From Candidatus Methylomirabilis limnetica (GTDB lineage: Bacteria; Methylomirabilota; Methylomirabilia; Methylomirabilales; Methylomirabilaceae): a stretch of 24,320 nucleotides of DNA. The notes below the pieces were generated by a model that did no database searches, was not told the origin of the DNA, and worked only from the letters and a program-made list of their open reading frames with translations. The position numbers were made by a program, and so were the translations under genes. Positions within the stretch are counted from its first letter, which is position 1. Every line of letters starts with the position of its first letter. Shown here in pieces: positions 244 through 19,591 of the stretch. Location of the stretch: the NCBI RefSeq assembly GCF_003044035.1, contig NZ_NVQC01000027.1, positions 1 to 24,320 on the forward strand, written 5' to 3'.

Positions 244-2490
244 GTGACTGAGCATACCTTGCCGCCGCAGCCTGAAAGGCTGGATCTGGGACAGCGCCCA
301 CTGACTGCGGGGGGTGTGGCATCGGTACGGTATTACCAGGCCGTCATGGTACTCACCATCGCGGTCTATCTGTACTACCTCGCCTACCGGCTCTTGTACA
401 CGATCAATTGGGATGCGCCGACATTCTCCCTTCTCTTTTATTACGCAGAATTCCACGGATGCCTTTCCCTGTTTCTCTACTTCTTCCAGATGTGGCATCC
501 ACTCCAGCGAACACCGCCTCCTGTTCCGCCCGGCTTGCGGGTAGACGTCTATATCCCCACCTACAAGGAAGACGTCAGCCTCGTCAGGAAAACGGTATTA
601 GGCTGTATCCACATGGCCTATCCCCATAAGACCTACATTCTGGACGACGGGAATAGGCCTGAATTTGCCGCGCTCGCAGCGGAACTGGGGTGCGCATATG
701 TGACGCGGAGAGAGCGGGCCCATGCGAAAGCCGGAAACATGAACCATGCCATGTCGATCTCCGATGGTGACTTTATCGTGGTCTTTGACGCGGACTATGT
801 CCCTCAACCCGATTTCCTCGACAAGACGCTCGGGTACTTCACGGACGAGAAGGTAGCCTTCGTCCAGACACCACAAAATTACTATAACGTCGAATCGTTC
901 TCATTTCGATTCAAATTTGAGAAGAGAGAAAAGTGGAACGAAGGGGATATGTTCTATCGCCTCATGATGCCGGCAAGGGACTACTGGAACGCCGCCTTCT
1001 TCGCCGGAACATCGGCGGTAATACGAAAGAGAGCGCTCGATGAGATCGGCGGGTTTGCGACAGAAACGATCACGGAAGACCTCCACACCAGCGTTCGACT
1101 GTGCAAGGCGGGGTGGCAAGGCGTGTACCACAATGAACTGTTATCCAGTGGGCTCGCTGCTACCGATCTCAAGAACTATCACATACAGAAACTCCGCTGG
1201 GCCGAGGGAAATATCAGTCTCCTCTTTGCCGATAACCCGCTGTGGACCAAAGGCTTGACCCTGCCGCAGCGGATCTGTTTCTTTGCCACGGTATTTGGCT
1301 GGTTCATCGGACTGCCAAAACTTATCTACTTCAGCACGCCGGCAATCATGCTGCTGACCGGGTGGTACCCCATCTTTCCCTTTAACTGGTCGTTCATGTG
1401 GCGGTACGCGATATTCCTGGCAGTGGTCATTATGAGTATCAAGATTGTCGGTCGGGGGCAGGGTCGGATCCGTGAGGATGAGATCTACAACATGATGAAC
1501 TTCTTTGTACTGTCCAAAGCCGTGGTCAGGGCTCTGTTGCGGTGGAAGTCTCAGTTCATCGTGACAGCGAAAGGGGCCGGCGAGGCGGTCAGCCTGTCGG
1601 CGCTCCTCCCCCAGTTGACGATCATCCTCTTGGGCGTCACTGCCATCGAGTGGGGGGCACTGAAATGGGCCTATGGCGTCTCGCATAACGGGCTGGGATT
1701 GGGCATCGGCATGTTCTGGAGCGGCGTCAACGGATACCTGGCCTGTGTGGTCGTAGCGACTGTGACCTCTCCCTTGCACCGCCGAAAGGAGTCTCGGTTC
1801 CTTGGCGGTCTACCTGTCTGGTACGAGGCCGGCGAGGGTGAGCGCGTGGCGAGCGGCCTGGGCATAGCCACGGATCTGAACGAGGATGGTATAGCGCTGG
1901 CGACATTCTCCGCCCTTCCTGTCGGGGAACTGGTGAAATTGAGGTTATATCTGGGCTCCAGGGTCATGACGTGCAACGGAGTCGTCCTGTATATCAACCG
2001 GAGCACGGCAATGGAGGGGGTCTTTCGATATGGCGTGAAATTCGCCGACCTGAGCAGGGAGGACAAGGATGCGATAACGGAATTCTGTTTCAGTCGGATG
2101 CTGCCAGCCTTCATGAACCGATTCGACGTCAGGCCGTCGCCGCTGACCAGGTTTGTGCTAGCCTATTATGACCGGCGGCAAATCAAGCGGAGGGCGAAAC
2201 GTATGGAGATCAGTCTGCCGATGATCCTGCGCGGCGACCCGCCACGCTACACGGTGACGGAGGATATCAGCATAGGCGGCCTGGCGTTCATGGTCACTTC
2301 TCCGATGGTGGCTGGTGCGCATGCCCCGATCACGCTGGTCACGCCGTTCGGAAGGCTGGATGCCGAGATCGAGATTCGCAATTGTCGGGAGGTGGCGACC
2401 GGACGGTCATACCGGGTCGGCGCCACGTTCGTAGAGCCGCTGGGACCATCCCTCAAGATCCTGGCGCAACTCTGCGAGACAGGCCACTGA
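244..2490 (+). CDS. bcsA: Cellulose-synthase-like processive family-2 glycosyltransferase with two C-terminal PilZ (c-di-GMP receptor) domains
   Basis: 748-codon ORF. BcsA-type motifs appear in the canonical order: YIPTYKED, ILDDGNRPEF, KAGNMNHAM, VFDADYVP (DxD), VQTPQNYYN, FFAGTSAVIRKRAL, TITEDLHTSVRL (TED) and QKLRWAEG (QxxRW). Hydrophobic helices lie before and after the GT domain. There are two PilZ signatures: RRKESR...DLNEDG and RRAKR...DISIGG. The GTG start at 244 is taken from the ORF track and is not verified. Confidence 0.85.
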   Translation: MTEHTLPPQPERLDLGQRPLTAGGVASVRYYQAVMVLTIAVYLYYLAYRLLYTINWDAPTFSLLFYYAEFHGCLSLFLYFFQMWHPLQRTPPPVPPGLRVDVYIPTYKEDVSLVRKTVLGCIHMAYPHKTYILDDGNRPEFAALAAELGCAYVTRRERAHAKAGNMNHAMSISDGDFIVVFDADYVPQPDFLDKTLGYFTDEKVAFVQTPQNYYNVESFSFRFKFEKREKWNEGDMFYRLMMPARDYWNAAFFAGTSAVIRKRALDEIGGFATETITEDLHTSVRLCKAGWQGVYHNELLSSGLAATDLKNYHIQKLRWAEGNISLLFADNPLWTKGLTLPQRICFFATVFGWFIGLPKLIYFSTPAIMLLTGWYPIFPFNWSFMWRYAIFLAVVIMSIKIVGRGQGRIREDEIYNMMNFFVLSKAVVRALLRWKSQFIVTAKGAGEAVSLSALLPQLTIILLGVTAIEWGALKWAYGVSHNGLGLGIGMFWSGVNGYLACVVVATVTSPLHRRKESRFLGGLPVWYEAGEGERVASGLGIATDLNEDGIALATFSALPVGELVKLRLYLGSRVMTCNGVVLYINRSTAMEGVFRYGVKFADLSREDKDAITEFCFSRMLPAFMNRFDVRPSPLTRFVLAYYDRRQIKRRAKRMEISLPMILRGDPPRYTVTEDISIGGLAFMVTSPMVAGAHAPITLVTPFGRLDAEIEIRNCREVATGRSYRVGATFVEPLGPSLKILAQLCETGH

Positions 2491-2912
2491 TGCCGAAACA
2501 CATGAACGGTATCCAACTGATCCGAAACGGATGGTTCGTCGGCGTAGCCGGCCTGTTGTATGGCGTAGCGGTCTGGGGTAGTTTTCAATGGATCTACACG
2601 GCCGAGATCGTGCTGGAACGGCTGGAGCAGGCGGTGGAAGCGCCGGATCCGGCGGCGGCAATGCGCGTGTATGAGCAGATCGCGCGCTCGCGAGTAAGGC
2701 GGGATGATCTCGATTCCTTTGTGAAGCTCGGACAGGTCCTTGAACGGGCTGAGCGGAGGGACGCGGCGATCGAGATCTGGCGGCGCGTTGTTGCCGTGGT
2801 CCCTGAGGACGAAGGGCTGAGGATGCGACTCGCGCTAACGCTGCACAATGCAGGCCGATATGCGGAAGCAGAGCCGCACTTCGCCGCACTGCTGAGGGAG
2901 GGACCGGAATAG
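2490..2912 (+). CDS. Small membrane-anchored TPR-like repeat protein (140 aa)
   Basis: The ATG at 2490 overlaps the bcsA stop (TGATG), suggesting translational coupling. An N-terminal TM helix (WFVGVAGLLYGVAVWGSF) is followed by helical TPR-like repeats. The C-terminus LRMRLALTLHNAGRYAEAEPHFAALL is paralogous to the end of the next ORF. The longer track ORF starting at 2382 would overlap bcsA by 108 nt, so I prefer 2490. Confidence 0.7.
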   Translation: MPKHMNGIQLIRNGWFVGVAGLLYGVAVWGSFQWIYTAEIVLERLEQAVEAPDPAAAMRVYEQIARSRVRRDDLDSFVKLGQVLERAERRDAAIEIWRRVVAVVPEDEGLRMRLALTLHNAGRYAEAEPHFAALLREGPE

Positions 2913-2914
2913 GG

Positions 2915-3418
2915 ATGACCAGACACATGACGCGGTGGACAGCGATCCTGCTGGCGGTAGCGCTGATAGGTGTAGCCTTCACCGCGCTGGCTCAGGAGCG
3001 GGAGTCACGAATTGACGAGAACTTCCTCCTACTGATGGGGGCAAGGAACGCGGCGAAGTCGGGCAAGCACGACACGTCGGTGCGACGCTACCGGAGGCTA
3101 CTGGAAAGGGACCCGCGGCTCAACGACGCACGAAACGAGCTCGGATGGGTGCTGATCGCAGCCGGCAGGGTTGCAGAAGCGCAAGAGGAGTTTCGGGTAG
3201 CCCTGCATGCAAACCCCAAGGACGCGGAGGCCTGGAAGGGGATTCTGGAGGCGCTGCGGAAGACCGATCAGAAGGACGAGTTTCTGAAGGTGCTGGATCA
3301 ACTGGTTGAGCTTGAGCCTGCACGAAAGGACCTGAGGATGCAGCTTGCGCTCGAGCTCCACAACCGTGGCCGGTTTACGGAGGCCGAAAAGCACATTGTT
3401 GTGCTGCTGGGAGAGTAA
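2915..3418 (+). CDS. Secreted TPR-repeat protein (167 aa), paralog of both flanking genes
   Basis: Signal peptide (WTAILLAVALIGVAFTALAQE). The N-terminal half (LLLMGARNAAKSGKHDTSVRRYRRLL...NELGWVLIAAGRVAEAQEEF) parallels the N-terminus of the porin ORF (LLLGARNAWRLGAYEQAITRYRSAI...TELGWLLLEAERRFEALAQF). The C-terminus LRMQLALELHNRGRFTEAEKHIVVLL parallels the preceding ORF. Confidence 0.75.
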   Translation: MTRHMTRWTAILLAVALIGVAFTALAQERESRIDENFLLLMGARNAAKSGKHDTSVRRYRRLLERDPRLNDARNELGWVLIAAGRVAEAQEEFRVALHANPKDAEAWKGILEALRKTDQKDEFLKVLDQLVELEPARKDLRMQLALELHNRGRFTEAEKHIVVLLGE

Positions 3419-3432
3419 GAAAGGGGTGCCGG

Positions 3433-4953
3433 ATGCGCCACCGACTCACCGTTCGGGTCCTGATTTTGGGCGTATTCATTGCTTGGGCCGCGACCATCGC
3501 GGGGGCCCAAGAGCCCAGCGAGCGAGAGGTGTTGCTGCTTGGAGCGAGGAACGCCTGGAGGCTCGGAGCGTATGAACAGGCGATCACCAGATACCGATCG
3601 GCAATCGCGCTCGCCCCAACACAGTGGGATGCCATTACTGAGCTTGGATGGCTGTTGCTTGAGGCGGAACGTCGTTTTGAGGCTCTCGCACAATTCGAGG
3701 CTGCCGCAACGCTCGCGCCTGATGATCTCACGGTATGGCGAAACAAAGCCGGGGCGTACGGCTGGACATTCCAGCATGAGCGCGCCCTGGCCGAATTTGA
3801 TGCGATCCTCAAACGGTTTCCGGATGATGTGGCCACGGTGCTGGAACGCGACGGTAAGGCATCGTTGTGGCTGGGGCGACTGAGACGGGCCAAGACTGCT
3901 TTCGAACTACTGGCCGAGCTGGAGCCACAGAACAGCGAGGCACTGTTCGATCTGGGGCAGATCGCTACGCTGGGTGGGCGGCCATCCGAGGCGCAAGCGG
4001 CGTACCGCCAATTGATGTCCGTCGTGCCGGGACATCGGCAGGCCGAGCTGGCATTGGATCTCAGTGAACTCTCCCAACGGCCGCTTCTCACGCTTGGCTA
4101 CAACTATATAGATCAGAAGGGCTTCGATGACAAGCGGTCAATCAGGTACGGACTGGCCAGCGCAGAGGGACGAGTTCGAATGTCGGACGACGTATCGGCC
4201 CGCGTCAGGTACGAGAATGTACAGTTCCATTTCGGACGCAAACACCTGTTGACCAATGTGGGAACCGTGGGGTTGCGCTACAGTCCGAACGGCTATTTCC
4301 ATATGGATGGATTCGTGAGCGAAATCCACTATAACGAGATCGGACGGGACCGCCTTAATGTCGGCGTTGGCGTGTCGTACGAGATGCCGTCCGGAACGAG
4401 GGTGCGAGTTGACTTCGAGCGGAAGGACCTGTGGGAGAACCAGACAACCGTCCTGAATGGGATTACCGTCAATAGACTCTCGGCAAGCGTGAGCGGAGCG
4501 CTCGAACGGCGCGTCGACTGGGCGATACAAGGCAACTACGCGAACTACTCCGATAACAACACCAGGGTCGGGGGCGAGTTTCTCGCGTCGTATCGTCTAC
4601 TCTGGTTTCCGAAGGCGTTTCGTCTCATCTACCGTGTAAACGCCTACGGGTTCCAGCGAGAGCGATCGTATTTTTCGCCGGGCGCATACGCCACGAACAC
4701 GGTAGCCGTGGAGTTTCAACGCTGGTTGGGCTATCCGACGAAAGAGGACTATCTGGCGGAGGCACCGCGCAACCACTATACCGCCTATTACGGGATCTCC
4801 ATGGATAGTAACGGGAAGTTGTTTCACGAGTGGCAAGGGAAGCTCGCCTATGCGCTGGCGCGCCAACTCGATGTCGGTCTGTCGCTGAAGGCGATTCGGT
4901 CGAGCGTGTATGATGAATGGAACGCGGGGGTACTGATCGACTACAGGTTCTAA
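3433..4953 (+). CDS. Outer-membrane exopolysaccharide export protein: N-terminal TPR domain fused to a C-terminal beta-barrel (BcsC/PelB/PgaA-like or YaiO/DUF560-like)
   Basis: The signal peptide ends ..IAGAQE. About 200 aa of TPR repeats are followed by about 270 aa rich in Y/G/N/R with alternating hydrophobic residues. The terminal residue is aromatic (..VLIDYRF*), the usual OMP barrel signature. AAAGGGG RBS about 6 nt upstream. Confidence 0.75.
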   Translation: MRHRLTVRVLILGVFIAWAATIAGAQEPSEREVLLLGARNAWRLGAYEQAITRYRSAIALAPTQWDAITELGWLLLEAERRFEALAQFEAAATLAPDDLTVWRNKAGAYGWTFQHERALAEFDAILKRFPDDVATVLERDGKASLWLGRLRRAKTAFELLAELEPQNSEALFDLGQIATLGGRPSEAQAAYRQLMSVVPGHRQAELALDLSELSQRPLLTLGYNYIDQKGFDDKRSIRYGLASAEGRVRMSDDVSARVRYENVQFHFGRKHLLTNVGTVGLRYSPNGYFHMDGFVSEIHYNEIGRDRLNVGVGVSYEMPSGTRVRVDFERKDLWENQTTVLNGITVNRLSASVSGALERRVDWAIQGNYANYSDNNTRVGGEFLASYRLLWFPKAFRLIYRVNAYGFQRERSYFSPGAYATNTVAVEFQRWLGYPTKEDYLAEAPRNHYTAYYGISMDSNGKLFHEWQGKLAYALARQLDVGLSLKAIRSSVYDEWNAGVLIDYRF

Positions 4954-4971
4954 CCTTGACGGCGTGACGGT

Positions 4972-6147
4972 ATGACTAGCGGCATTTGGATCATAAGAGT
5001 AGTCGGGGTAATAAGCTTACTCGTGGTCACCTGTACGGCGTCGGCCTACGGTCCCAGGGTTGAGATCGATCCGGCGGTCGATCTGATCGCCAGGGCCTGG
5101 AGCGGGTACGGCAAGCGGTTCATTCAACAGGACGGGCGTGTCCAGCGTCCTCGGAACGGTGGGGATACGGTATCCGAGGGGCAGGCGTATGCGTTACTCA
5201 TCGCTTCGCTGCTCGACGACCGAAAGACATTCGACAGGGTATTGGACTGGACGGAACGACACCTCTCGCGGAAGGGTCGCACCGGCGACCATCTGCTTGC
5301 CTGGCATTGGGAGCCAGGCAAGGGCGTCACTGACTGGAACAGCGCGTCCGATGCCGACCTCGATTATGCCCTCGCGCTGATTACGGCCTCCGCCCGCTGG
5401 CGCGACGAGCGCTATGCCCGGAAGGCGCGATTGGTCATGAGCGATCTACTCAACCTGGAAACAGAGGTGATCAATAGGCGGAGGTATCTCATGCCTGGAA
5501 GCTGGAGAAAAGGGCGCGCCTCCTACATCATTAACCCATCCTATTCGTCGCCGGCCCACTTCCGGATATTCTTTGCGTGTACCGGAGACCCGCGTTGGAA
5601 CGACCTGATCGAGGGAAGCTACCACCTTATTGAGACAGTCTCTAAGGGCTTTGCCGGAGTCCCTGGCGTGGGGTTAGTGCCGGACTGGCTGCTCCTCACA
5701 GCGGACGGAGCCCTGATGCGCGCCACGGGATTTTCGGATCGGTTTAGCTGGGATGCCATTCGAACCCCGTGGCGACTCGGAATGGATGCGCTGTGGTTCG
5801 GGGAGGATCGGGCAAGGCAATACCTCGACGGCATGAGCGATTTTTACACGCGAGAGTGGGAGAGGCACGGTGGTCGATTCTTCGCCGAGTACACGTACGA
5901 GGGCACACCGGCCCAGAGGTATGAACGCGTAGCCGCCTATGCCATGAGCCTATCGGCGCTGGCGAGGTCGAACAGCCCTGTCTTGCCTGGCGTTCTCGTT
6001 AAGCTACGTAACGCCTTCAACAAGGAAGCGTCCCTCTTCGAAGGCAGCGACGACTACTATACGAACAGTCTCGTACTGCTTGCGCTGATCTTCTATCGCG
6101 AGGGGACACTGCCGACCCTCGATCCCAGGAATATCAGTTGCCGATGA
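4972..6147 (+). CDS. bcsZ: Glycoside hydrolase family 8 endoglucanase (BcsZ-like)
   Basis: Signal peptide present. SEGQAYALLIA matches the catalytic Glu region. ASDADLDYALALITASARW is a one-mismatch match (Y where I/M is expected) to the GH8 signature A-[ST]-D-[AG]-D-x2-[IM]-A-x-[SA]-[LIVM]-[LIVMG]-x-A-x3-[FW]. Confidence 0.85.
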   Translation: MTSGIWIIRVVGVISLLVVTCTASAYGPRVEIDPAVDLIARAWSGYGKRFIQQDGRVQRPRNGGDTVSEGQAYALLIASLLDDRKTFDRVLDWTERHLSRKGRTGDHLLAWHWEPGKGVTDWNSASDADLDYALALITASARWRDERYARKARLVMSDLLNLETEVINRRRYLMPGSWRKGRASYIINPSYSSPAHFRIFFACTGDPRWNDLIEGSYHLIETVSKGFAGVPGVGLVPDWLLLTADGALMRATGFSDRFSWDAIRTPWRLGMDALWFGEDRARQYLDGMSDFYTREWERHGGRFFAEYTYEGTPAQRYERVAAYAMSLSALARSNSPVLPGVLVKLRNAFNKEASLFEGSDDYYTNSLVLLALIFYREGTLPTLDPRNISCR

Positions 6148-12118: not shown

Positions 12119-13093
12119 TTATTGTTGGATGGCGACGGCGAACGGCATCTTCCCGACGGGGACGGTGGCGATCACCTTCTCGGTCGCGACGTCGATGACC
12201 GAAACCGCGTCGCTGCGACCACACGCAACATAAAGACGCTGCTCGTCCGGCGTAAAGGCCAGATACCAGGCCCGCTGGCCCACGGGGATCTTCTTGGTGA
12301 TGGTCAAGGTGCGGGCATTGATCACATATACGGCATTGGTCCGCCCATGCGCCACATAGAGGCGGCGGCCGTCTCGTGTCACGACCACCCCAACGGGCCG
12401 TTCGCCAACCGGGATGGTCTTGATCACCCGGTGCTTGGCCACATCAATCACCGATAAGACGCCGGGGTCGGCCTGCTCGCTTGTCACGTAGGCATATCTA
12501 CCATTCGGGCTGAAGGCAATTCCACGCGGGTTCTTCGCAACCGGGATGGCGGCCACCACCTTGAGGGCCGAGGTATCGATGACCGAGATGGTGCTAGATG
12601 TCTCGTTGGACACGTAGGCAATCTTTCCATTCGGGCTAATCGCAATCCATTCAGGCTCCACCTGGACCTCAATGGTGGCAATCACCGTACCGGTCTTAGT
12701 GTCCATCACCGTAACCGTTCCGCCGTTCTCGTTCACCGCGTACAGACGAGCCCCGTCAGGACTGAGCGCTACCCCCTCGGGATCCACCCCAGCGGGCCAC
12801 GTCGCCACAACCTTGCCGGCCTCGGCATCAATGACACTGATATCGTCGGAATTACCATTGGCAATGTACACGCGACGTCGGTCCAGCGAGATCGCGATTC
12901 CTCTCGGGCGCTTGCCAACCGGGATCGAGTTGACAACTGTATTGTTTGTGGTGTCGATGACTGAGACATCATCCGATTTCTCATTCGTCGCATAGGCCAT
13001 CGGCCCAGCCGAGGCGGCCGACGAGATATGGGCAAACCACAACAGAAGCGCCATTACAAGAGCCCACCCGCCCCGGCATCGTCCGTCTCGCAT
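12119..13093 (-). CDS. Secreted YVTN-family 7-bladed beta-propeller repeat protein
   Basis: Signal peptide (ALVMALLLWFAHISSAASA). Seven blades of about 42 aa each carry the YVxN..x..VSVID pattern: AYATNEKSDDVSVIDT, VYIANGNSDDISVIDA, LYAVNENGGTVTVMDT, AYVSNETSSTISVIDT, AYVTSEQADPGVLSVIDV, LYVAHGRTNAVYVINA and LYVACGRSDAVSVIDV. GAGGAG RBS 8 nt upstream. Confidence 0.85.
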   Translation of the reverse strand: MRDGRCRGGWALVMALLLWFAHISSAASAGPMAYATNEKSDDVSVIDTTNNTVVNSIPVGKRPRGIAISLDRRRVYIANGNSDDISVIDAEAGKVVATWPAGVDPEGVALSPDGARLYAVNENGGTVTVMDTKTGTVIATIEVQVEPEWIAISPNGKIAYVSNETSSTISVIDTSALKVVAAIPVAKNPRGIAFSPNGRYAYVTSEQADPGVLSVIDVAKHRVIKTIPVGERPVGVVVTRDGRRLYVAHGRTNAVYVINARTLTITKKIPVGQRAWYLAFTPDEQRLYVACGRSDAVSVIDVATEKVIATVPVGKMPFAVAIQQ

Positions 13094-13488: not shown

Positions 13489-13608
13489 CAGGTAGATAGA
13501 CTGAAGACTAAAGGCTTTTAGGGGCAGGAGACGAGAGGATCGGAAAGGGTTTGATTCGGCCTTGCGAGAGAATGTATAGCCTTCGGCCTTCAACCTAAAC
13601 ACCTGAGT
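13489..13608 (+). repeat. MITE-like / structured repeat, family 4, short copy (120 bp)
   Basis: The left arm CAGGTAGATAGACTGAAGACTAAAGGCTTTTAGGGG and the right arm TTGATTCGGCCTTGCGAGAGAATGTATAGCCTTCGGCCTTCAACCTAAACACCTGAGT match the two ends of 18675..18874 in the same orientation. The arms are imperfect inverted repeats of each other. Confidence 0.65.
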
Positions 13609-13664
13609 CGTGACAATCATCGTATCGATACCATGGAATTAACCCACACAAACACGGAGGAGTG

Positions 13665-14267
13665 ATGAGCGTACTCGTTGGTAAGTTCGCACCCGATTTT
13701 ACTGTAACCGCCGTCATGCCGGATGGCAGCTTCAAAGATAACTTTATGTTGGCCGACTACAAGCACACCAAGTATGTTGTGCTCTTCTTCTATCCCCTCG
13801 ATTTTACCTTCGTCTGCCCTTCAGAGATTATCGCCTTTGACCACCGCGTGGCTGAGTTCAACAAGCGCGGCGTACAGGTTGTCGGTTGCTCCGTAGATTC
13901 ACAGTTCACCCATTCCGCATGGCGCGGCACCCCTGTCAATAAGGGGGGCATCGGTCCGGTCGGCTATCCACTGATAGCTGACCTTAAAAAGGAATTCGCT
14001 TGCGCATACGACGTACTGCTGTCGGGCGGAGTGGCCCTGCGCGGATCCTTCCTGATCGACAAACACGGCATCGTCCAGCACCAGGTTATCAACAACCTGC
14101 CGCTCGGGCGCAATGTGGATGAGATGCTTCGCATGGTGGATGCGCTCCAGTTCCACGAGGCCCATGGAGAGGTCTGCCCAGCCGGATGGACAAAGGGGGC
14201 CAAGGGAATGCAACCTAACGCCGAGGGTGTTGCAAGCTACCTGACCAGCGAGGCTGCAAAGCTGTAA
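13665..14267 (+). CDS. Typical 2-Cys peroxiredoxin (AhpC/Prx1 family)
   Basis: FTFVCPSEI peroxidatic-Cys motif and EVCPAGW resolving-Cys motif, 200 aa. GGAGGA RBS at 13656-13661. I prefer ATG 13665 over the track's GTG 13662. Confidence 0.9.
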   Translation: MSVLVGKFAPDFTVTAVMPDGSFKDNFMLADYKHTKYVVLFFYPLDFTFVCPSEIIAFDHRVAEFNKRGVQVVGCSVDSQFTHSAWRGTPVNKGGIGPVGYPLIADLKKEFACAYDVLLSGGVALRGSFLIDKHGIVQHQVINNLPLGRNVDEMLRMVDALQFHEAHGEVCPAGWTKGAKGMQPNAEGVASYLTSEAAKL

Positions 14268-14411
14268 GGATCATGGTGATTGGGGTGGTCGCGCCATGCA
14301 GGTTAGGATTTCCGCCTGCGCCGGCCACCCTAGACTTCCTTGTGCGACGGTATAACCCTGCCCTTCCTCGTTATTCGGTCGCCACCTACCTGTAAGGTAA
14401 ACCTCAGGCTG

Positions 14412-15878
14412 ATGCGGTACACCGAATTTCATTCCGGCTTTATCTGGGCATCGTTGACAACGGCGATCGTCGCGGGATTTGCGTTCGGCGCCTACCTGGC
14501 TGTGGTCATTGGCTACGGCTTTCCCGTGGGGCAGGGATTCTACTCCCTTATCCAGACACACGGGCATCTGCAACTCGTTGGCTGGGTAGGGCTATTTATC
14601 ATGGGCGTCAGCCTTCATTTCATTCCCCGGCTGGCCAGCTTCCCCATTCCTCACCCCGAACGGATGAACCGGATTCTTTGGTTGATGGCTCCTGGGCTCC
14701 TCCTCCGGGCGGTCGGAGGGACGGTCCTAGCCTACATCGAGGGTAGTCCGATCTTCGTTCCTCTGAGTTGGCTGGTAGTTGCCTCGGGGGTACTGGAAGG
14801 AGGCGCGATTATCCTGTACGTGTCACTCCTAATTGAAACCATACGCGGAAGCGATAAGGCCAGAAGGCTTCCAGCGTTGAGCGCGGTCAAACCGTATTTC
14901 GGCATGATGGCGGTCGGCTGGGTCCTCTATGCGTGTCTCAATCTGTTCTTGGTGCTTCATATGGCGCTGAACAGTACTACTACCGTGGACACCGCCTGGA
15001 ATGAGTTTGCCAATACCACCTTCATGAGTCTCGTGCTCCTGCCTGTGGCCTTCGCCCTTTCGGTTCGCCTCTTTCCGCTGTACCTGGCCTTGCCGGCTCC
15101 GGATTGGCCGGTCTTCGGGACAGGATACGCGTATCTCCTGGCTGTATTCCTGCAAGTGGTCCCCGCGGCGCCTCCCCTGGCAGGACTCGCGCCGGAGGCC
15201 ACCAGGTTGGTTGTCGCCCTGGGAACGCTACTGAAGGGGGGCGTTATCCTCTGGTTCGTGTGGCAACTGGATCTACTCACTCGCCGCCGGCCCCTAGGTC
15301 GCCATGCCCGCTTTCTGGATACTGGGCCGGATCGCCCGCCCACGCGACCGGGCTTACCGGATTATGGAGAGTTTGGCCGATTCGAACGCCTGGTCTACGC
15401 CGCCTACACGTGGCTTGTCCTTGCCGCGTTCGTCGAACTCCTTTGCGGTGCTGCAATCTTGTTAGGCTATTCGATCTCGATCGGCACAGACGCGATCCGT
15501 CATATGTATCTACTCGGCTTCATCACCCACCTCATTTTCGGCGCGTCCGTCCGTATGCTGCCTGGCTTCCTGAGGAAGAAACGTGTGGCCAGTACCTCGT
15601 TAGTTGACACCACCTTTTGGTTGGGCAGTACGGCGGCGGTTTGTCGCGTGGTGCCATTACTTCTGCCATCTTGGCTATTTGACGAGCTTCCTGCTGGCGT
15701 CATGCTTACCCAAACTGCCTTTGCGATCTCAGGATTACTCGGGTGGGGAGCCGTCCTGTGCCTCGCGATGAATTTGCGCCAGACTCAAAGTAATTGCTAT
15801 CAGGAAGCAACTGGACAACGTCCCCCGGCTGGTCGCGGTCCGGGAAATGCCCTGACAGAGGGTTATCGTGAGCGCTGA
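14412..15878 (+). CDS. nnrS: NnrS-like polytopic membrane protein (about 12 TM helices; putative heme/copper NO-response protein)
   Basis: Highly hydrophobic, with about 12 helices. The His-containing motifs THGHLQLVGWVGLFIMGVSLHFIPR (early helix) and IRHMYLLGFITHLIFGASVRMLPGF (late helix) resemble the NnrS H-x-H-E-M-x-F-G-F signature and its pseudo-repeat. It is a clear paralog of the core of 16878..18707 (AHGHAQVFGFAALFIMGVAYHVIPRF / GRHAFTLGFLTQIVVGVAARLIPVF). The start is placed at ATG 14412; the track's 14340 is a TTG with a non-hydrophobic extension. The RBS is weak. Confidence 0.7.
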   Translation: MRYTEFHSGFIWASLTTAIVAGFAFGAYLAVVIGYGFPVGQGFYSLIQTHGHLQLVGWVGLFIMGVSLHFIPRLASFPIPHPERMNRILWLMAPGLLLRAVGGTVLAYIEGSPIFVPLSWLVVASGVLEGGAIILYVSLLIETIRGSDKARRLPALSAVKPYFGMMAVGWVLYACLNLFLVLHMALNSTTTVDTAWNEFANTTFMSLVLLPVAFALSVRLFPLYLALPAPDWPVFGTGYAYLLAVFLQVVPAAPPLAGLAPEATRLVVALGTLLKGGVILWFVWQLDLLTRRRPLGRHARFLDTGPDRPPTRPGLPDYGEFGRFERLVYAAYTWLVLAAFVELLCGAAILLGYSISIGTDAIRHMYLLGFITHLIFGASVRMLPGFLRKKRVASTSLVDTTFWLGSTAAVCRVVPLLLPSWLFDELPAGVMLTQTAFAISGLLGWGAVLCLAMNLRQTQSNCYQEATGQRPPAGRGPGNALTEGYRER

Positions 15879-15980
15879 ACTGGACTTCATTAGTGGTTAT
15901 ATGGAGCGAGTCAACCCTGGCAACCAAGGGGTGTGCGGGGCCACGCGGAGCAGGAGAAGTAAAAGGGAGGTCATAAAAGC

Positions 15981-16445
15981 ATGAGGGCAATATTGATCGG
16001 AATCTGTGTGGGCGCGGTGGGAATGATCGCCATCGGGTTCTTCGGTAGCTCCGCTGCCGCCCCACCCCACGAATCCTCAACCGACACGCGGCAACGGCTG
16101 ATTTTTGCCCCTACCCAGCGAGACATGATGCTTACCGAGATGCGTCAGATGCTCGGGTCTGTTAGCGGGATCGTACAGGGCCTGGCGGCCAATGATCTCC
16201 CTGCGGCGGAGAAGGCAGCCCGCGCGGCTGGCATGATGCACGCAGCCGACGTTGATCCACAGATCCAGAAACTGCTTCCCCAACAGTTCCTGGGGCTGGC
16301 AATGCAAACTCACATGGGGTTCGACAAACTTGCCGACCAGATTAAAGCCGGTAATAGCCGTGATGACACCCTCCGCGGGCTCGCGACGCTGACAGGCAAC
16401 TGCATGGCCTGTCACGCCATGTACCGGCTCGACGAAGCACGCTAA
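15981..16445 (+). CDS. cycP: Cytochrome c' (class II c-type cytochrome, four-helix-bundle type)
   Basis: A signal/anchor peptide (ILIGICVGAVGMIAIGFFGSSAAA) is followed by a helical mature part of about 125 aa. A single CxxCH lies near the C-terminus in LATLTGNCMACHAMYRLDEAR. That is the class II cytochrome c pattern, comparable to ..GGTCKACHDDYR.. in Rhodobacter cytochrome c'. GGGAGG RBS about 10 nt upstream. Confidence 0.75.
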   Translation: MRAILIGICVGAVGMIAIGFFGSSAAAPPHESSTDTRQRLIFAPTQRDMMLTEMRQMLGSVSGIVQGLAANDLPAAEKAARAAGMMHAADVDPQIQKLLPQQFLGLAMQTHMGFDKLADQIKAGNSRDDTLRGLATLTGNCMACHAMYRLDEAR

Positions 16446-16482: not shown

Positions 16483-16532
16483 ACCTTCCAGCATCCCCTC
16501 CCCCCACCGAGGGGGAGGGCGCGGGTGGGGGG
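16483..16532. repeat. G/C-tract hairpin repeat, family 1, truncated copy 3
   Basis: ACCTTCCAGCATCC-[CCTCCCCC caccga GGGGGAGG]-GCGCGGGTGGGGGG. It has the same left arm, first hairpin and right G-run as copies 1 and 2 but lacks the second hairpin. Confidence 0.6.
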
Positions 16533-16656: not shown

Positions 16657-16685
16657 TTGACCTCCCCTGCCGCTTCAGCTATATT
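16657..16685 (+). promoter_or_regulatory. Candidate strong sigma70-type promoter for the ScdA_N-NnrS-DUF1858 gene
   Basis: TTGACC (16657-16662), a 17-nt spacer, then TATATT (16680-16685). It is followed by a leader of about 185 nt before ATG 16878. Confidence 0.45.
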
Positions 16686-16877: not shown

Positions 16878-18707
16878 ATGGGCGCACACCAGTTCACGAG
16901 TGCAACGACGGTTGACGATGTCGTGCATGTTAACCCGGCTCTCAGCCGGATCCTGAATACGCACGGGATCGACACATGCTGCGGGGGTAGTGCCACGCTC
17001 GCCGAGGCCGCACACGTGCGCGGCATCGATCTCGGCGCGTTGCTCGCGAGTTTGAACCGAGAAGGCGAGCCGCGTAAACAAACCGCTGCCATCGCGACAG
17101 AGCCTGCGGGCCGTTGCGTCGCACCCGCTTGTGAGGTATCGGCCCCATCTGCGTACCCACCACGCGTGGCTGTCATAGTTCCCGCAGTTCCACGGCCGAC
17201 GCGCTACGTCCGGTTCTTCACTGCCAGCTTGTTCTTTGCGCTCACCTTCGGTAGTACGCTCGGCGCGTTGACGCTCGCCACCCTCACGCTTCCCTGGAAC
17301 TTCCTCGGTGGACTGCCGACGGCCTCTGCCAAAGTGGCGCACGGACACGCGCAAGTCTTCGGTTTCGCCGCCTTGTTTATCATGGGCGTCGCCTACCATG
17401 TCATTCCGCGCTTCAAGGGGGCGCCGCTTGCCGCACCGGGCGTGGCCTCGGCGTCATTCTGGTTGCAAGTGGGTGGCGTACTGGCTGTCGCCGTCGGCCT
17501 GCTCGTCGGACCGCCGGTGGTTGGGCCAATGCGATTCATGGGGGCCATTGCGCTGCTTACGGCGGCGTTGAGTTTCGGATGGGTCGTACATCATAGCTTG
17601 GCTGCCGGTGCGCCGACAACCGAGCGCTTCGAGCGCTATCTACGCGCCGGATGTGCATGGCTGGCGGTTGCGGCCGCATTAGCCGTCGCCACGGCGGCCG
17701 GCATTGATCCGCTCCAACCGGTGGTATGGGAGGCGGCGCTGTGGGGTTTCGCGGCCTCGTGGATCCTCGGCATGAGTTTGCGCATCGTGCCGGTCTTCCT
17801 GGGCCTGCTACCGTCACCTCAACGCGGAAGCAGCGCGCTGTTCGCCGGCTATCAACTGGCCGTGTTGGCATGGGTGATCATATCCGTCATTGAAGTGTGG
17901 ACACTGCTTCCAATCGCGCGCGCACTTGCCGGGGTAGCGCTGGCGCTCGCGGCTGGAGCATTCGTCCTGCGGCTTGGCATCCTCGGGCCGTGGGAGAGTC
18001 AGGGTAAAGTGGGCGACCGTGGCTACGAAAAGTTTATGGTCGTCGCCTATGCATGGTTGATTGTCGCGCTCGTATGTGTACCCGCTTGGAGGGCGGCGAC
18101 GGCACTCGTAGGCAGCCCTATGCCCGCGCTGGTCCTGGACTTCGGTCGCCACGCGTTCACTCTCGGATTTCTGACGCAGATTGTCGTTGGTGTCGCCGCG
18201 CGCCTCATCCCGGTATTTGCCGGCACGCCACTATGGAGCAAGGGTTGGCGCGACGTCACCTTCTATCTGCTCAACGCGGCAGTGGTGGCGCGCGGTCTCG
18301 AGGTGCTGGTTGAGGTCGTCGGCCTGTCCGGCGTATGGCCATACATCTCCCTCTCCGGTCTACTGGGCGTGGGCGCATTTGCCGCTTTTACTGCAAACGT
18401 ATTCATGACCGTACGTGCGCGTCCGCCTGCCGTGGCGCCCACACCGGAAGAGGGAGAATCGATGGCGGACAACGTCGTCGCCGATATCCTTACCATCCCG
18501 GGCGCCCTCGAGCTGCTCGTGAGCCGCGGTTTACGCCCGCTCCAGAACCCGGAAATGCGCGCGGCGATGGCCCCCACTGTGACGCTGCGACAGGCGTGCC
18601 GGATTCATAGCATCGAGATTGAACCGCTGCTGGCCGAGCTGTCCAAGCTGGCGGCGATGTCGCGTGGTAACACTCAGGTAGATAGACTGAAGGCTGAAGG
18701 CTTTTAG
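16878..18707 (+). CDS. Three-part fusion protein: N-terminal ScdA_N (DUF542, RIC/YtfE N-domain-like), a 12-TM NnrS-like core and a C-terminal DUF1858 domain
   Basis: The N-terminus TTVDDVVHVNPALSRILNTHGIDTCCGGSATLAEAAHVRGIDLGALLASLN fits the ScdA_N pattern (..P....vf...giDfCCgG..tL.ea....g.d...ll..L). I count 12 hydrophobic helices, carrying the NnrS-like motifs AHGHAQVFGFAALFIMG and GRHAFTLGFLTQIVVG. The C-terminus VVADILTIPGALELLVSRGLRPLQNPEMRAAMAPTVTLRQACRIHSIEIEPLLAELSKL fits DUF1858 (L.nP.mR......Tl.qAa...g.....Ll..L). The last roughly 11 codons and the TAG stop (18705-18707) lie inside repeat 18675..18874. Confidence 0.75.
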   Translation: MGAHQFTSATTVDDVVHVNPALSRILNTHGIDTCCGGSATLAEAAHVRGIDLGALLASLNREGEPRKQTAAIATEPAGRCVAPACEVSAPSAYPPRVAVIVPAVPRPTRYVRFFTASLFFALTFGSTLGALTLATLTLPWNFLGGLPTASAKVAHGHAQVFGFAALFIMGVAYHVIPRFKGAPLAAPGVASASFWLQVGGVLAVAVGLLVGPPVVGPMRFMGAIALLTAALSFGWVVHHSLAAGAPTTERFERYLRAGCAWLAVAAALAVATAAGIDPLQPVVWEAALWGFAASWILGMSLRIVPVFLGLLPSPQRGSSALFAGYQLAVLAWVIISVIEVWTLLPIARALAGVALALAAGAFVLRLGILGPWESQGKVGDRGYEKFMVVAYAWLIVALVCVPAWRAATALVGSPMPALVLDFGRHAFTLGFLTQIVVGVAARLIPVFAGTPLWSKGWRDVTFYLLNAAVVARGLEVLVEVVGLSGVWPYISLSGLLGVGAFAAFTANVFMTVRARPPAVAPTPEEGESMADNVVADILTIPGALELLVSRGLRPLQNPEMRAAMAPTVTLRQACRIHSIEIEPLLAELSKLAAMSRGNTQVDRLKAEGF

Positions 18708-18874
18708 GGGTAAATCATGCGTGATCACACAAAACCGGGCATTTGAGGTGGCTGATGGAGTAGCAATGTCGGTTTATCGGGTTGAACTAAAGATCGTAGA
18801 AACTGAGAAGGTCTTGAATAGCTTGATTCGTGCCTTGCGAGATAATTTAGAGCCTTCAGCCTAAACACCTGAGT
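18675..18874 (+). repeat. MITE-like / structured repeat, family 4, long copy (200 bp)
   Basis: The left arm is (ACT)CAGGTAGATAGACTGAAGGCTGAAGGCTTTTAGGGG. The right arm is TTGATTCGTGCCTTGCGAGATAATTTAGAGCCTTCAGCCTAAACACCTGAGT. The reverse complement of the right end (ACTCAGGTGTTTAGGCTGAAGGCT) matches the left end (ACTCAGGT...GCTGAAGGCT), so the termini are inverted repeats. Both ends are shared with 13489..13608, but the interior differs. Confidence 0.65.
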
Positions 18875-18896
18875 AGTTATATCGCGTGACGTATTA

Positions 18897-18961
18897 GAGA
18901 TGGACACAACCGTTATGAGCATGGATAAGAGGAGGATACAACCGTTATGAGCATGGATAAG
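18897..18961 (+). repeat. 32-nt tandem duplication of the translation-initiation region of the downstream gene
   Basis: GACACAACCGTTATGAGCATGGATAAG (18903-18929) and GATACAACCGTTATGAGCATGGATAAG (18935-18961) match at 26 of 27 positions with a 32-nt period. The preceding bases are also related: AGAGATG before unit 1 and AGAGGAG before unit 2, the latter being the better RBS. Confidence 0.8.
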
Positions 18962-19591
18962 CCGACGTCACGTGAACAATTCACACTTTCGTTGCGGGTA
19001 CGTCCGGAACCGATTATGGTGCGCGACCCCTTTCTCGAATTCTTGGGATTAGTCGGTCCTGAGGAGCCGATCGCGGTCGGCTTTGAAGAGTTGGTCAAGG
19101 CGGCGGGCCATATGTGTCCGACTGTAGCGGGCGCGTATCTCGTCTTGCGGCATGGGCTTAAAGCCCTGTACGGTGATGAGCCGGCCGTCCGCGGCAACGT
19201 ACAGGTGACGGCCTACGGCGGACCTACGGATTTCGGGTATGGGCCGATCTCGCAACTGGTGAACCTGGTCATCGGCGCCGCGTCTGAGACCGGTTTTGGG
19301 GGGTTGGGGGGCGGGCGCTTTCGCCGACGCGACCTCTTCGTCTTTCGGAGCGATGATCTGCGCCATAGCGAGTTCGACTTTGCGCGCCTCGATACCGGGC
19401 GCTCTGTCCATGTCACGTACGATCCGGGGGTGGTGCCGACACCTAAAGATCTCTCAGCAGCCATCGGCCCCGCGCTCTCTAACGGTGATGCCGCCTCGGT
19501 AGCTCGTTTCCGCAGCCTCTGGAATGGGCGCGTAGAAGACATCCTCGAGGCCGACGCGCGCGCCGTTCGCATCCAGCCCGCCGGCTCATAG
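18947..19591 (+). CDS. Hypothetical protein, possibly an FmdE-like domain (214 aa)
   Basis: GAGGAGGA RBS about 8 nt upstream of ATG 18947, and coding-like codon usage throughout. VKAAGHMCPTVAGAYLVLRHGLKAL resembles the GH-x-CP-G-x-x-x-G motif of FmdE-family proteins. There is no C-terminal Cys-rich zinc ribbon. The functional call is weak. Confidence 0.65.
   Translation: MSMDKPTSREQFTLSLRVRPEPIMVRDPFLEFLGLVGPEEPIAVGFEELVKAAGHMCPTVAGAYLVLRHGLKALYGDEPAVRGNVQVTAYGGPTDFGYGPISQLVNLVIGAASETGFGGLGGGRFRRRDLFVFRSDDLRHSEFDFARLDTGRSVHVTYDPGVVPTPKDLSAAIGPALSNGDAASVARFRSLWNGRVEDILEADARAVRIQPAGS

Follow-up and report, generated by a model that had tools for sequence, protein, structure and literature searches.

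An NnrS-type membrane protein joined to two RIC-type small domains in Candidatus Methylomirabilis limnetica

The gene at positions 16878..18707 (+ strand) of the window, the 24,320-nt stretch of Candidatus Methylomirabilis limnetica DNA analysed here (contig NZ_NVQC01000027.1), is genuine and intact, and combines an NnrS-type membrane core with two RIC-type small domains. The host is a methane oxidiser of the NC10 group that produces NO. The 609-aa ORF has an ATG start and encodes, from the N- to the C-terminus, a ScdA_N domain, a linker, a core of 12 transmembrane (TM) helices with an NnrS/haem-copper oxidase (HCO) fold, and a DUF1858 domain. It is well supported that the protein belongs to the NnrS family and carries two homologous four-helix caps, on a face predicted to be cytoplasmic. 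For its function we favour, tentatively, a membrane haemoprotein of the NO-stress response, with cytoplasmic caps that would couple the core to soluble metalloproteins and, in the clade of the window, would include a dithiol relay, a mechanism that we infer.

All three parts gave Pfam matches above the cut-off, which bears out the three-part architecture that an earlier note had read from the letters of the window. The N-terminal ScdA_N domain (DUF542; residues 10–61, 16905..17060, +) scored 58.7 bits (cut-off 32.5, E 4e-16) and contains the motif GIDTCCGG at residues 30–37, with the vicinal pair Cys34-Cys35 encoded at nt 16977–16982. It is followed by a disordered, Pro/Ala-rich linker (residues 62–106, 17061..17195, +) with a pLDDT below 50 across residues 68–103 of the AlphaFold2 model and with a sequence and length that differ between homologues. 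The core (residues 107–513, 17196..18416, +) matched NnrS (PF05940) with 39.4 bits (cut-off 28, E 6e-10) over residues 128–509 and profile positions 13–364 of 371, and includes the motifs AHGHAQVFGF (154–163) and GRHAFTLGF (423–431). The C-terminal DUF1858 domain (PF08984; residues 534–584, 18477..18629, +) scored 47.4 bits (cut-off 32.2, E 2e-12). The RIC profile TIGR03652 covered residues 12–68 only (41 bits, cut-off 204.7), and no hemerythrin domain was matched anywhere in the window. An assembly or frameshift artefact is ruled out by more than 20 full-length orthologue clusters, which are 73–92% identical and share the same three domains, and by comparison with other NC10 genomes.

The AlphaFold2 model of the protein (pLDDT 87, pTM 0.79) is most confident in the core (pLDDT >95), where it has exactly 12 long helices (107–137, 148–180, 187–210, 215–242, 252–273, 277–308, 318–338, 345–366, 382–411, 417–448, 455–481, and 484–513), consistent with the hydropathy profile and with the even helix count given earlier. 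The core is built from three repeats of four TM helices, and the internal repeats were detected with 94–98% probability. The loops contain seven Lys and Arg residues on the predicted cytoplasmic side and none outside, a bias that fits an N-in/C-in topology. Together with the even helix count, it suggests that both end domains lie in the cytoplasm, as the earlier note had presumed.

The two end domains are homologous to each other, aligning in hhalign with 96.6% probability (E 5.6e-10), in agreement with the kinship of ScdA_N and DUF1858 proposed before. The family profile of the N-domain matches Staphylococcus aureus ScdA (9r7j, E 1e-8) and that of the C-domain matches PDB 2fi0 (E 8e-11); in some relatives, three or four copies of this fold are present. 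The Cys-Cys motif had been called a hallmark, and it is indeed present in the 609-aa protein, but it turned out to be specific to a clade: among the 76 N-terminal domains scored (71 loci), only nine have the vicinal pair; another 57 contain GCGG with one Cys, and the 10 anammox-type domains lack any such Cys. The caps can thus not in general serve as a dithiol relay. The pair is strictly conserved in the members from NC10, Binatia, and those labelled Deltaproteobacteria, where it co-occurs with an FmdE-fold partner protein bearing an invariant His-x-Cys. The C-terminal copy never has a Cys pair, and in the DUF1858 domain of the 609-aa protein there is a single Cys573.

Foldseek matched the model of the core to the cbb3 oxidase subunit CcoN (probability 1.0, E 4e-8, TM-score 0.71–0.74) and also to NorB, COX1, ba3, aa3, and bo3, with CcoN, NorB, and COX1 all at probability 1.0 over ~470 colinear columns. 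The link to the haem-copper oxidases needed the structure model, because sequence searches of the PDB returned the small domains only and profile searches added no more than a weak match to NorB (E 0.88 in A1 and E 0.0016 in A2). The Pfam COX1 (PF00115) score of the window protein is below the cut-off (21.4 against 34.8 bits), and some relatives exceed it (such as P0081 with 46.4 bits and P0086 with 48.4 bits). Profile-based mapping of residues was misled by the three-fold repeat within the core, such that TM2 of the query was aligned to TM10 of NorB and FixN; this was settled through separate alignments of the repeats, with individually weak E-values (0.0006–0.04), and the colinear Foldseek match.

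The invariant core residues are H155 (nt 17340–17342), Q159, H174 (nt 17397–17399), R178, R302, P305, R424, H425 (nt 18150–18152), R442, and P445, and H155, H174, and H425 are the sole invariant His in the family alignment. In bovine COX1, NorB, and FixN, the residue aligned with H155 (TM2) is the haem His of TM2, and H425 (TM10) is aligned with the second His of the HxH motif in TM10 of FixN. Of the six His ligands of an HCO (two for the low-spin haem, one for the high-spin haem, and three for CuB/FeB), these two low-spin haem positions are the only ones that align, and haem binding by H155 and H425 is a prediction from alignment. The HxH position of TM10 reads G-R-H, which places G423 where the high-spin ligand would be. 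In the alignments, the core has no counterpart of the high-spin haem His or of any of the three CuB/FeB His, and no His is conserved in TM6 or TM7. Of the "haem/copper" module of the earlier note, only the haem half would be retained, with two candidate haem ligands; there is no CuB-type His or copper-site motif in the sequence. It is well supported that the core is a stripped-down relative of HCO subunit I with a predicted low-spin haem near the outer face only.

The fusion gene is accompanied in the window by several genes on the same strand. A paralogous NnrS/HCO-fold core (14412..15878, +) is 26% identical to the 609-aa protein over 488 aa (BLASTP E 1e-17), scores 38.3 bits with Pfam COX1, has neither end domain, as had been noted, and is syntenic in three NC10 loci (L001, L002, and L010). 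Between this paralogue and the fusion gene lies a probable class II c-type cytochrome, membrane-anchored or exported, with a C-terminal CMACH (15981..16445, +); its Cytochrom_C_2 match is weak (E 0.002, below the cut-off), and the gene is syntenic in NC10. A candidate sigma-70-like promoter upstream of the fusion gene (TTGACC-17-TATATT, 16657..16685, +) agrees with the consensus at 10 of 12 positions in a pattern scan. At the 3' end of the fusion gene, a MITE-like insertion of ~210 nt (18667..18878) with 24-nt inverted repeats (18672–95 and 18851–74) and a flanking 10-nt direct repeat replaces the last few residues after DUF1858 and parts the gene from its downstream partner. The element is missing at the same position in three other NC10 genomes, and a second MITE-like copy is present at 13489–13611. 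Neither an NO-type regulator nor a hemerythrin adjoins the fusion gene in the window, and no binding site for such a regulator was identified.

The downstream partner gene (18947..19591, +), which the earlier note had passed over together with the NO-regulon context, encodes a 214-aa FmdE-fold protein with an invariant GHxCP motif (H55, C57). The protein is 63–87% identical to the one encoded directly downstream of the fusion gene in L001, L006, and L007, and in Binatia it makes up the C-terminal part of an 829-aa protein (P0045), on one polypeptide with the NnrS-type core. Its AlphaFold2 model (pLDDT 95.9) matches 2gvi, 2glz, and 3d00 with probability 1.0 in Foldseek. The Pfam FmdE (PF02663) score of 14.3 bits is below the cut-off of 22.9; relatives with 37–46% identity carry PF02663, and distant ones are named FmdE family. 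The partner is restricted to the closest clade (four of the 80 loci considered below).

Homologues of the 609-aa protein form 97 clusters, of which the closest are from Ca. Methylomirabilis/NC10, and the following counts were taken over the best 80 species-level loci. An end domain is present on both sides of the core in 66 of these, from Acidobacteriota, Planctomycetota (including anammox bacteria), Verrucomicrobiota, and other phyla. The layout, earlier described as unusual, is thus the norm in the clade and widespread rather than rare, and such proteins already have an NCBI name, "DUF542 domain-containing protein". Literature searches for a fusion of NnrS with DUF542/ScdA/DUF1858 found no description. 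A tblastn search of the core against the PLSDB plasmids gave no match. Genes of the HCO/NOR type occur in 16 of the 80 loci, as detected with a profile that does not split NO reductases from oxidases, and hemerythrins in 26. In one Hydrogenedentota operon (L062), Rrf2, a relative of the fusion gene, qNOR, and a bona fide RIC (TIGR03652, 249 bits) follow one another. A general "split RIC", with a membrane-bound ScdA_N and a free hemerythrin, was weakened as an explanation, since the resemblance of the neighbouring hemerythrins to the di-iron domain of RIC is weak, some operons contain a complete RIC gene in addition, and most N-domains have no Cys pair.

Several known systems share parts with the 609-aa protein. 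Like NnrS of Rhodobacter sphaeroides, Sinorhizobium meliloti, and Vibrio cholerae (PF05940), it has 12 TM helices, an above-cut-off Pfam score, and, in relatives, neighbouring genes of a probably NO-responsive kind. Our canonical reference was the NnrS of S. meliloti pSymA, fetched by coordinates (Pfam 380 bits), to which the protein is 18% identical in the alignment. VAHGHAQVFGF aligns with AWHAHEMLFGF and GRHAFTLGF with VMHVLTVGA, so that the two share the H-x-H...FGF motif of TM2 and the His of TM10; H155 and H425 are both invariant in the family and common to the reference, which bears out the two NnrS-like His motifs first noticed. However, canonical NnrS has ~400 aa and no soluble domains, whereas the 609-aa protein has a cap at each end (ScdA_N and DUF1858) as well as an FmdE-fold partner, and the triad H174/R302/R442, invariant on the cytoplasmic side in its family, is broken in S. 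meliloti NnrS by a Thr at the H174 position. With HCO subunit I (CcoN, NorB, COX1; PF00115), it has in common the 12-helix fold, the three-fold pseudo-symmetry, and the TM2/TM10 His that align with low-spin haem ligands, but not the high-spin haem ligand, the CuB/FeB ligands, or the partner subunits. RIC/YtfE/ScdA proteins (TIGR03652) likewise start with a ScdA_N domain containing D-x-C-C-G-G and belong to the NO-stress gene set, yet they are soluble and continue with a hemerythrin-like di-iron domain instead of a membrane core; relatives of the 609-aa protein have hemerythrin at most as a separate neighbour, or a complete RIC in the operon. Stand-alone DUF1858 or "hybrid-cluster-protein-associated redox disulfide" proteins (PF08984, TIGR03980; PDB 2fi0, 2k5e, 2k53) have the same small helical fold, but these are free proteins of 70–80 aa, and the 609-aa protein carries one such fold at each terminus of its membrane core. 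The partner, finally, shares the fold and the GHxCP motif of the FmdE family (PF02663; 2gvi, 2glz, 3d00), but is unlinked to formylmethanofuran dehydrogenase genes and is found beside or fused to an NnrS-type protein.

Studies of these systems provide a frame for the possible mechanism. NnrS shields the pool of iron against forming dinitrosyl-iron complexes without removing NO (PMC9246220). In YtfE, the Cys pair of ScdA_N supplies electrons to the di-iron centre and the domain caps a hydrophobic channel, to which its position governs the access of NO, and the physiological reductant is unknown (PMC9052748). The RIC gene dnrN and nnrS belong to the core of NO regulons (PMC1274295), and a stand-alone DUF1858 gene beside nnrR in the NnrR regulon of Bradyrhizobium diazoefficiens showed a 29-fold drop in an nnrR mutant (PMC6710368). 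In the reading that we tentatively favour, the 609-aa protein would not reduce NO itself and, like V. cholerae NnrS, would limit the damage by NO to cytoplasmic iron. Its link to NO draws on the gene neighbourhoods among the 80 loci, with Rrf2, Crp/Fnr, or sigma-54 regulators in 34, the HCO/NOR-type genes, the hemerythrins, the L062 operon, and the nos clusters around L005, L006, and L007, and on NC10 and anammox hosts in which NO is an intermediate. By analogy with the ScdA_N of YtfE, the caps would cover the openings of the core towards the cytoplasm and connect it with soluble metalloproteins. Within the clade of the window, where the N-terminal cap would retain a redox-active Cys-Cys pair, the coupled partner may be the FmdE-fold protein encoded immediately downstream, and in relatives the hemerythrin-type di-iron protein that is often next may serve as well. 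Caps and partners would then pass on electrons or NO as a RIC-like thiol/metal relay anchored in the membrane. Against a relay, electrons from a single outer-face haem would have no evident route over the ~25 Å to the caps. The small share of N-domains with the Cys pair, the restriction of the FmdE-fold partner to the closest clade, and the lack of a hemerythrin or NO-type regulator beside the gene in the window also weigh against the favoured reading.

Other explanations read the same features differently. The caps could be lids, gates, or stabilisers of the NnrS core that have no redox role and transfer neither electrons nor NO, with the Cys pair as a leftover or a regulatory switch; we consider this unlikely. 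Most family members are without the Cys pair, the YtfE precedent for position-controlled access of NO fits a lid, and core-only relatives with 50–55% identity indicate that the core can stand alone, whereas the strict conservation of the pair throughout one clade and its co-occurrence with the FmdE-fold partner argue for selection on thiol chemistry. A catalytic HCO-type enzyme, i.e., a new NO reductase or the NO dismutase sought in Methylomirabilis, would suit the subunit I fold, the paralogue and c-type cytochrome encoded next door, and a host that both makes and consumes NO, but the core has none of the ligands of a binuclear centre and is thus not an NO reductase or oxidase, which makes this reading highly improbable.

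The missing catalytic centre would suit a membrane NO/redox sensor, in which the core haem senses membrane-dissolved NO and the cytoplasmic domains signal to adjacent regulators. Genes for Rrf2, Crp/Fnr, or PAS-sigma-54 regulators do occur within 1.5 kb in 34 of the 80 loci, often ~100 nt upstream on the same strand. This arrangement is, however, usual for a regulated target rather than a co-sensor, and the regulators have sensory parts of their own (the Fe-S cluster in Rrf2 proteins such as NsrR, and, in L003 and L006, the PAS domains of the sigma-54 activators), while the fusion protein has no recognisable output domain and a bis-His six-coordinate haem would presumably bind NO poorly. We regard a sensor as quite improbable. 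Also very doubtful is a metal-trafficking or cofactor-assembly factor that delivers iron, copper, or Fe-S to N-oxide reductases with the FmdE-fold protein as chaperone. It draws on the nos clusters that flank L005, L006, and L007, with ApbE and NosL near the fusion-gene relatives there, on FeS_assembly_P and DUF2249 genes next in the Binatia operon, and on the Pfam description of FmdE as a non-catalytic gene of a metalloenzyme operon. Against it, nosZ is found in only two of the 80 loci, for which reason a reading as a nos accessory gene was dropped, and near none of the genes in NC10 bacteria, the window included, and the invariant columns of the core contain no conserved Cys/Met/His cluster typical of metal transporters.

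Few members of bacterial NO regulons are as widely conserved as NnrS and RIC (YtfE/ScdA), and to our knowledge no molecular mechanism has been established for NnrS. The fold match also places NnrS as a haem-copper oxidase relative without the catalytic centre. The natural fusion of a RIC-type N-domain to an NnrS core, recurring across phyla with qNOR/RIC/Rrf2 operons, is Rosetta-stone evidence that the two cooperate physically. The energy metabolism of NC10 and anammox bacteria passes through free NO as an intermediate, so that the protection of iron enzymes is a real question for these organisms. A further proposal, which we think distinctly unlikely, is that NnrS-type proteins are degenerate HCO subunits with the low-spin haem only, joined in this lineage with the thiol caps and the FmdE-fold metalloprotein in a membrane-bound complex not recognised before, and feed electrons to, or take NO from, RIC-type chemistry. 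Were such a complex real, the ScdA_N dithiol relay would have in NnrS its "missing" physiological redox partner, and RIC and NnrS would act along one pathway.

The 609-aa ORF (16878..18707, forward strand, ATG start) is genuine, and Pfam recovered all three domains named in the earlier note, i.e., ScdA_N at residues 10-61 (58.7 bits, cut-off 32.5), an NnrS-like core at residues 128-509 (39.4 bits, cut-off 28) and DUF1858 at residues 534-584 (47.4 bits, cut-off 32.2), together with a below-threshold COX1 match at residues 111-342. Because the NCBIfam models for RIC (the YtfE/ScdA/dnrN di-iron iron-repair proteins) match through only their first ~60 residues, TIGR03652 reaching 41 bits where 204.7 is the cut-off, the gene does not encode a RIC. 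A chimera or artefact was rejected, as more than 20 full-length orthologue clusters share the same three domains at 73-92% identity, several of them named Candidatus Methylomirabilis or NC10. In an AlphaFold2 model (50 homologues as input, pLDDT 87, pTM 0.79), each end domain is small and helical, linker residues 68-103 are disordered (pLDDT <50) and exactly twelve long helices occupy residues 107-513, the number given in the earlier note. The even helix count behind the proposal that both soluble domains share one side therefore stands, while their cytoplasmic placement is predicted from the twelve helices; loops predicted to face that side carry seven Lys+Arg and those outside none.

For the core, a Foldseek search of the PDB returned only subunit I chains of haem-copper oxidases (HCO), headed by cbb3 CcoN (E 4e-8, probability 1.0, TM-score 0.71-0.74, ~470 colinear columns) and followed by NorB, ba3, aa3 and bo3. 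Some relatives pass the Pfam COX1 cut-off with nearly the whole model covered, e.g., the homologous protein P0081 (46.4 bits). The core comprises three 4-helix repeats still detectable by sequence (repeats 1 and 3, 98.3%, E 2e-14; repeats 2 and 3, 98.1%; repeats 1 and 2, 94.3%), in agreement with the pseudo-three-fold symmetry for which subunit I is known. Invariant in 50 family members are H155, Q159, H174 and R178 in TM2, R302 and P305 in TM6, and R424, H425, R442 and P445 in TM10. H155 aligns with the haem His in TM2 of bovine COX1 (bovine sequence identical to 1occ_A) and of S. meliloti NorB and FixN, and H425 with the second His of the FixN TM10 H-x-H motif, in single alignments that are weak (E 0.0006-0.04) but mutually consistent and matching the colinear structural alignment; in solved structures of those enzymes, the two positions bind the low-spin haem. 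G423 stands where the high-spin haem ligand would be, and no conserved His was found in TM6 or TM7 of the family alignment. The expected conservation of His ligands holds for H155 and H425, which are common to canonical S. meliloti NnrS from pSymA (Pfam, 380 bits); H174 is not. Of the heme/copper module suggested earlier, the copper part lacks sequence support, leaving two candidate low-spin haem His, and in our reading the core would hold one bis-His haem b close to the outer face, without a catalytic centre. Between nnrS and norB on S. meliloti pSymA lies a 452-aa membrane ORF (L089:28235-29590, reverse strand) that matches no Pfam family but does match the core profile (hhalign 71.6%, E 3.5e-5) and has a Tyr aligned at the conserved haem-ligand His position in TM10; this ORF of a classic denitrification island may represent a further degenerate relative of the NnrS/HCO kind.

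The suspected kinship of the two end domains was upheld by profile-profile comparison (96.6% probability, E 5.6e-10, 56 columns), which identifies them as copies of one fold. The family profile finds 2fi0, a DUF1858 protein of solved structure (E 8e-11), as well as 9r7j, the ScdA N-terminal domain from S. aureus (E 1e-8). In the C-terminal copy, a P-L-x-N-P-x-x-R insertion replaces the D-T-C-C-G-G loop and a single Cys is kept. The GIDxCCGG hallmark is present in the fusion protein but is not general to the family: of the 76 N-terminal domains that were scored (71 loci), 9 have the clade-specific Cys pair, 57 a single Cys within G-C-G-G, and 10, of the anammox type, no Cys. Some relatives (loci L005, L016, L022, L023, L026, L055) carry two tandem N-terminal domains, CC-type then GCGG-type, and L055 has two C-terminal copies besides, so that the number of caps ranges from 0 to 4.

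The architecture had been called unusual, but the same layout is not rare: at least 458 genomes, scanned at one per species, contain a relative; clusters at 50% identity number 107 at E <1e-30 and 355 at E <1e-10. Among the 80 best species-level loci, 61 encode N-domain, core and C-domain and 5 have two tandem N-domains before core and C-domain, with the C-domain missing in 5, the N-domain in 3 and both in 6. Hosts include Acidobacteriota (among them cultured Pyrinomonas methylaliphatogenes K22), Planctomycetota (among them Brocadiaceae), Verrucomicrobiota, Chloroflexota, Hydrogenedentota, Omnitrophota, Myxococcota and Binatia. In four Acidobacteriota loci (L060, L064, L076, L086), the fusion-type genes have no C-terminal domain, and another core paralogue follows within ~1 kb downstream (opposite strand in L060), echoing the pair in the window. 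In databases, proteins of this type already go by the name "DUF542 domain-containing protein"; we found no description of the fusion in the literature.

The next ORF (18947..19591, 214 aa), overlooked by the earlier note, shares 63-87% identity with the product of the gene that immediately follows the fusion in metagenomic loci labelled NC10, Deltaproteobacteria and others, and its conservation exceeds that of the membrane protein. In 829-aa Binatia proteins, its homologue is fused as the C-terminal 244 residues. The model (pLDDT 95.9) matches only the FmdE-like structural-genomics proteins 2gvi, 2glz and 3d00 (probability 1.0), relatives at 37-46% identity carry the FmdE family name, and G54, H55 and C57 are invariant. 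Within the species-level loci, this partner is confined to the CC-type clade and one Brocadia locus, there 2.7 kb downstream; in three metagenomic loci it is followed by a hemerythrin that resembles the RIC di-iron domain only weakly. A tandem 32-nt duplication (18893-18956, 88% identical) covers the ribosome-binding site and start codon of the partner gene, and the close homologue P0001 seems to read through the equivalent stretch into a longer C-terminus.

Profiles built from sequences gathered here gave neighbour counts over the 80 loci that are rough because the profiles are crude and many contigs short: within 1.5 kb, Rrf2 regulators occur in 18 (typically ~100 nt upstream, same strand), Crp/Fnr regulators in 11, sigma-54 activators in 5 and at least one of the three in 34, and anywhere in the locus, hemerythrins in 26 and haem-copper/NOR-type genes in 16. 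Pfam and NCBIfam spot checks bore out the Rrf2, Crp, hemerythrin and qNOR assignments. The operon in a Hydrogenedentota locus (L062) has the order Rrf2, fusion gene, qNOR and bona fide RIC (TIGR03652, 249 bits), and metagenomic relatives stand at the head of nos clusters or divergent from them. Comparative genomics has placed this gene set in NO regulons, whose core members include dnrN (RIC) and nnrS (PMC1274295). In B. diazoefficiens, a stand-alone DUF1858 gene adjoining nnrR drops 29-fold when nnrR is mutated (PMC6710368).

Upstream of the fusion gene, an NC10-specific syntenic block (13662-16445) encodes an AhpC peroxiredoxin (13662-14267), the NnrS/HCO-fold paralogue without end domains (14412-15878; above the Pfam COX1 cut-off, no Pfam NnrS match) and a 154-aa protein whose N-terminus bears an anchor and whose C-terminus bears a CMACH haem-c motif, with a weak match to cytochrome c'. 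Directly after the cytochrome gene, a G+C-rich inverted repeat (16494-16525, CCCCTCCCCCCACCGAGGGGGAGGG...) lacks a T tract and was not called by the terminator scan. A MITE-like element of ~210 nt (18667-18878; 24-nt terminal inverted repeats, 10-nt flanking direct repeat) sits in the last codons of the fusion gene at a site empty in three other NC10 genomes; a shorter copy (13489-13611) lies between a promoter-like site and ahpC, and MITE-end-like pieces lie downstream of the partner gene in loci L001, L002 and L010. The window further holds a cellulose-synthase-type operon (244-6147) of a BcsA-like GT2 + PilZ protein (244-2490), TPR proteins (2915-4953; in the second, the PgaA barrel is weakly matched) and a GH8 glucanase (4972-6147). 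A 324-aa beta-propeller protein on the reverse strand (12119-13093) matches YncE-like, lactonase and cytochrome d1 haem-domain propellers and may be akin to nitrite-reductase accessory propellers.

With architecture, fold, ligand pattern, cap homology, conserved partner and NO-gene neighbourhood established, we infer that the fusion protein is the NnrS of its lineages, acting in NO stress. V. cholerae NnrS guards the iron pool against dinitrosyl-iron complexes but does not remove NO (PMC9246220), and by analogy the fusion protein would do likewise. The ScdA_N domain of YtfE covers a hydrophobic NO channel, and its Cys pair hands electrons to the di-iron centre, the physiological reductant being unknown (PMC9052748); on this model, the caps would close over the core's cytoplasmic openings and link the core to soluble metalloproteins, in the window's clade possibly by way of a Cys-Cys relay that leads to the FmdE-fold partner. 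Against such a relay speaks that the Cys pair is not general in the family, and against cap coupling that the lone haem would lie near the outer face with no obvious electron route to the caps, which might instead be passive lids. The protein could also be an NO sensor or a metal-assembly factor; a catalytic oxidase-type enzyme is disfavoured because the ligands are missing.

Measured against known systems, the fusion protein agrees with NnrS and DUF1858 in every respect that could be compared. It has the fold of HCO subunit I but not its ligands; of the two halves of RIC, it has ScdA_N and lacks the di-iron part. It connects NnrS to the N-terminal domain of RIC in the manner of a Rosetta stone, places NnrS as an HCO relative with a low-spin haem site only, and brings in a hitherto unrecognised FmdE-fold partner.
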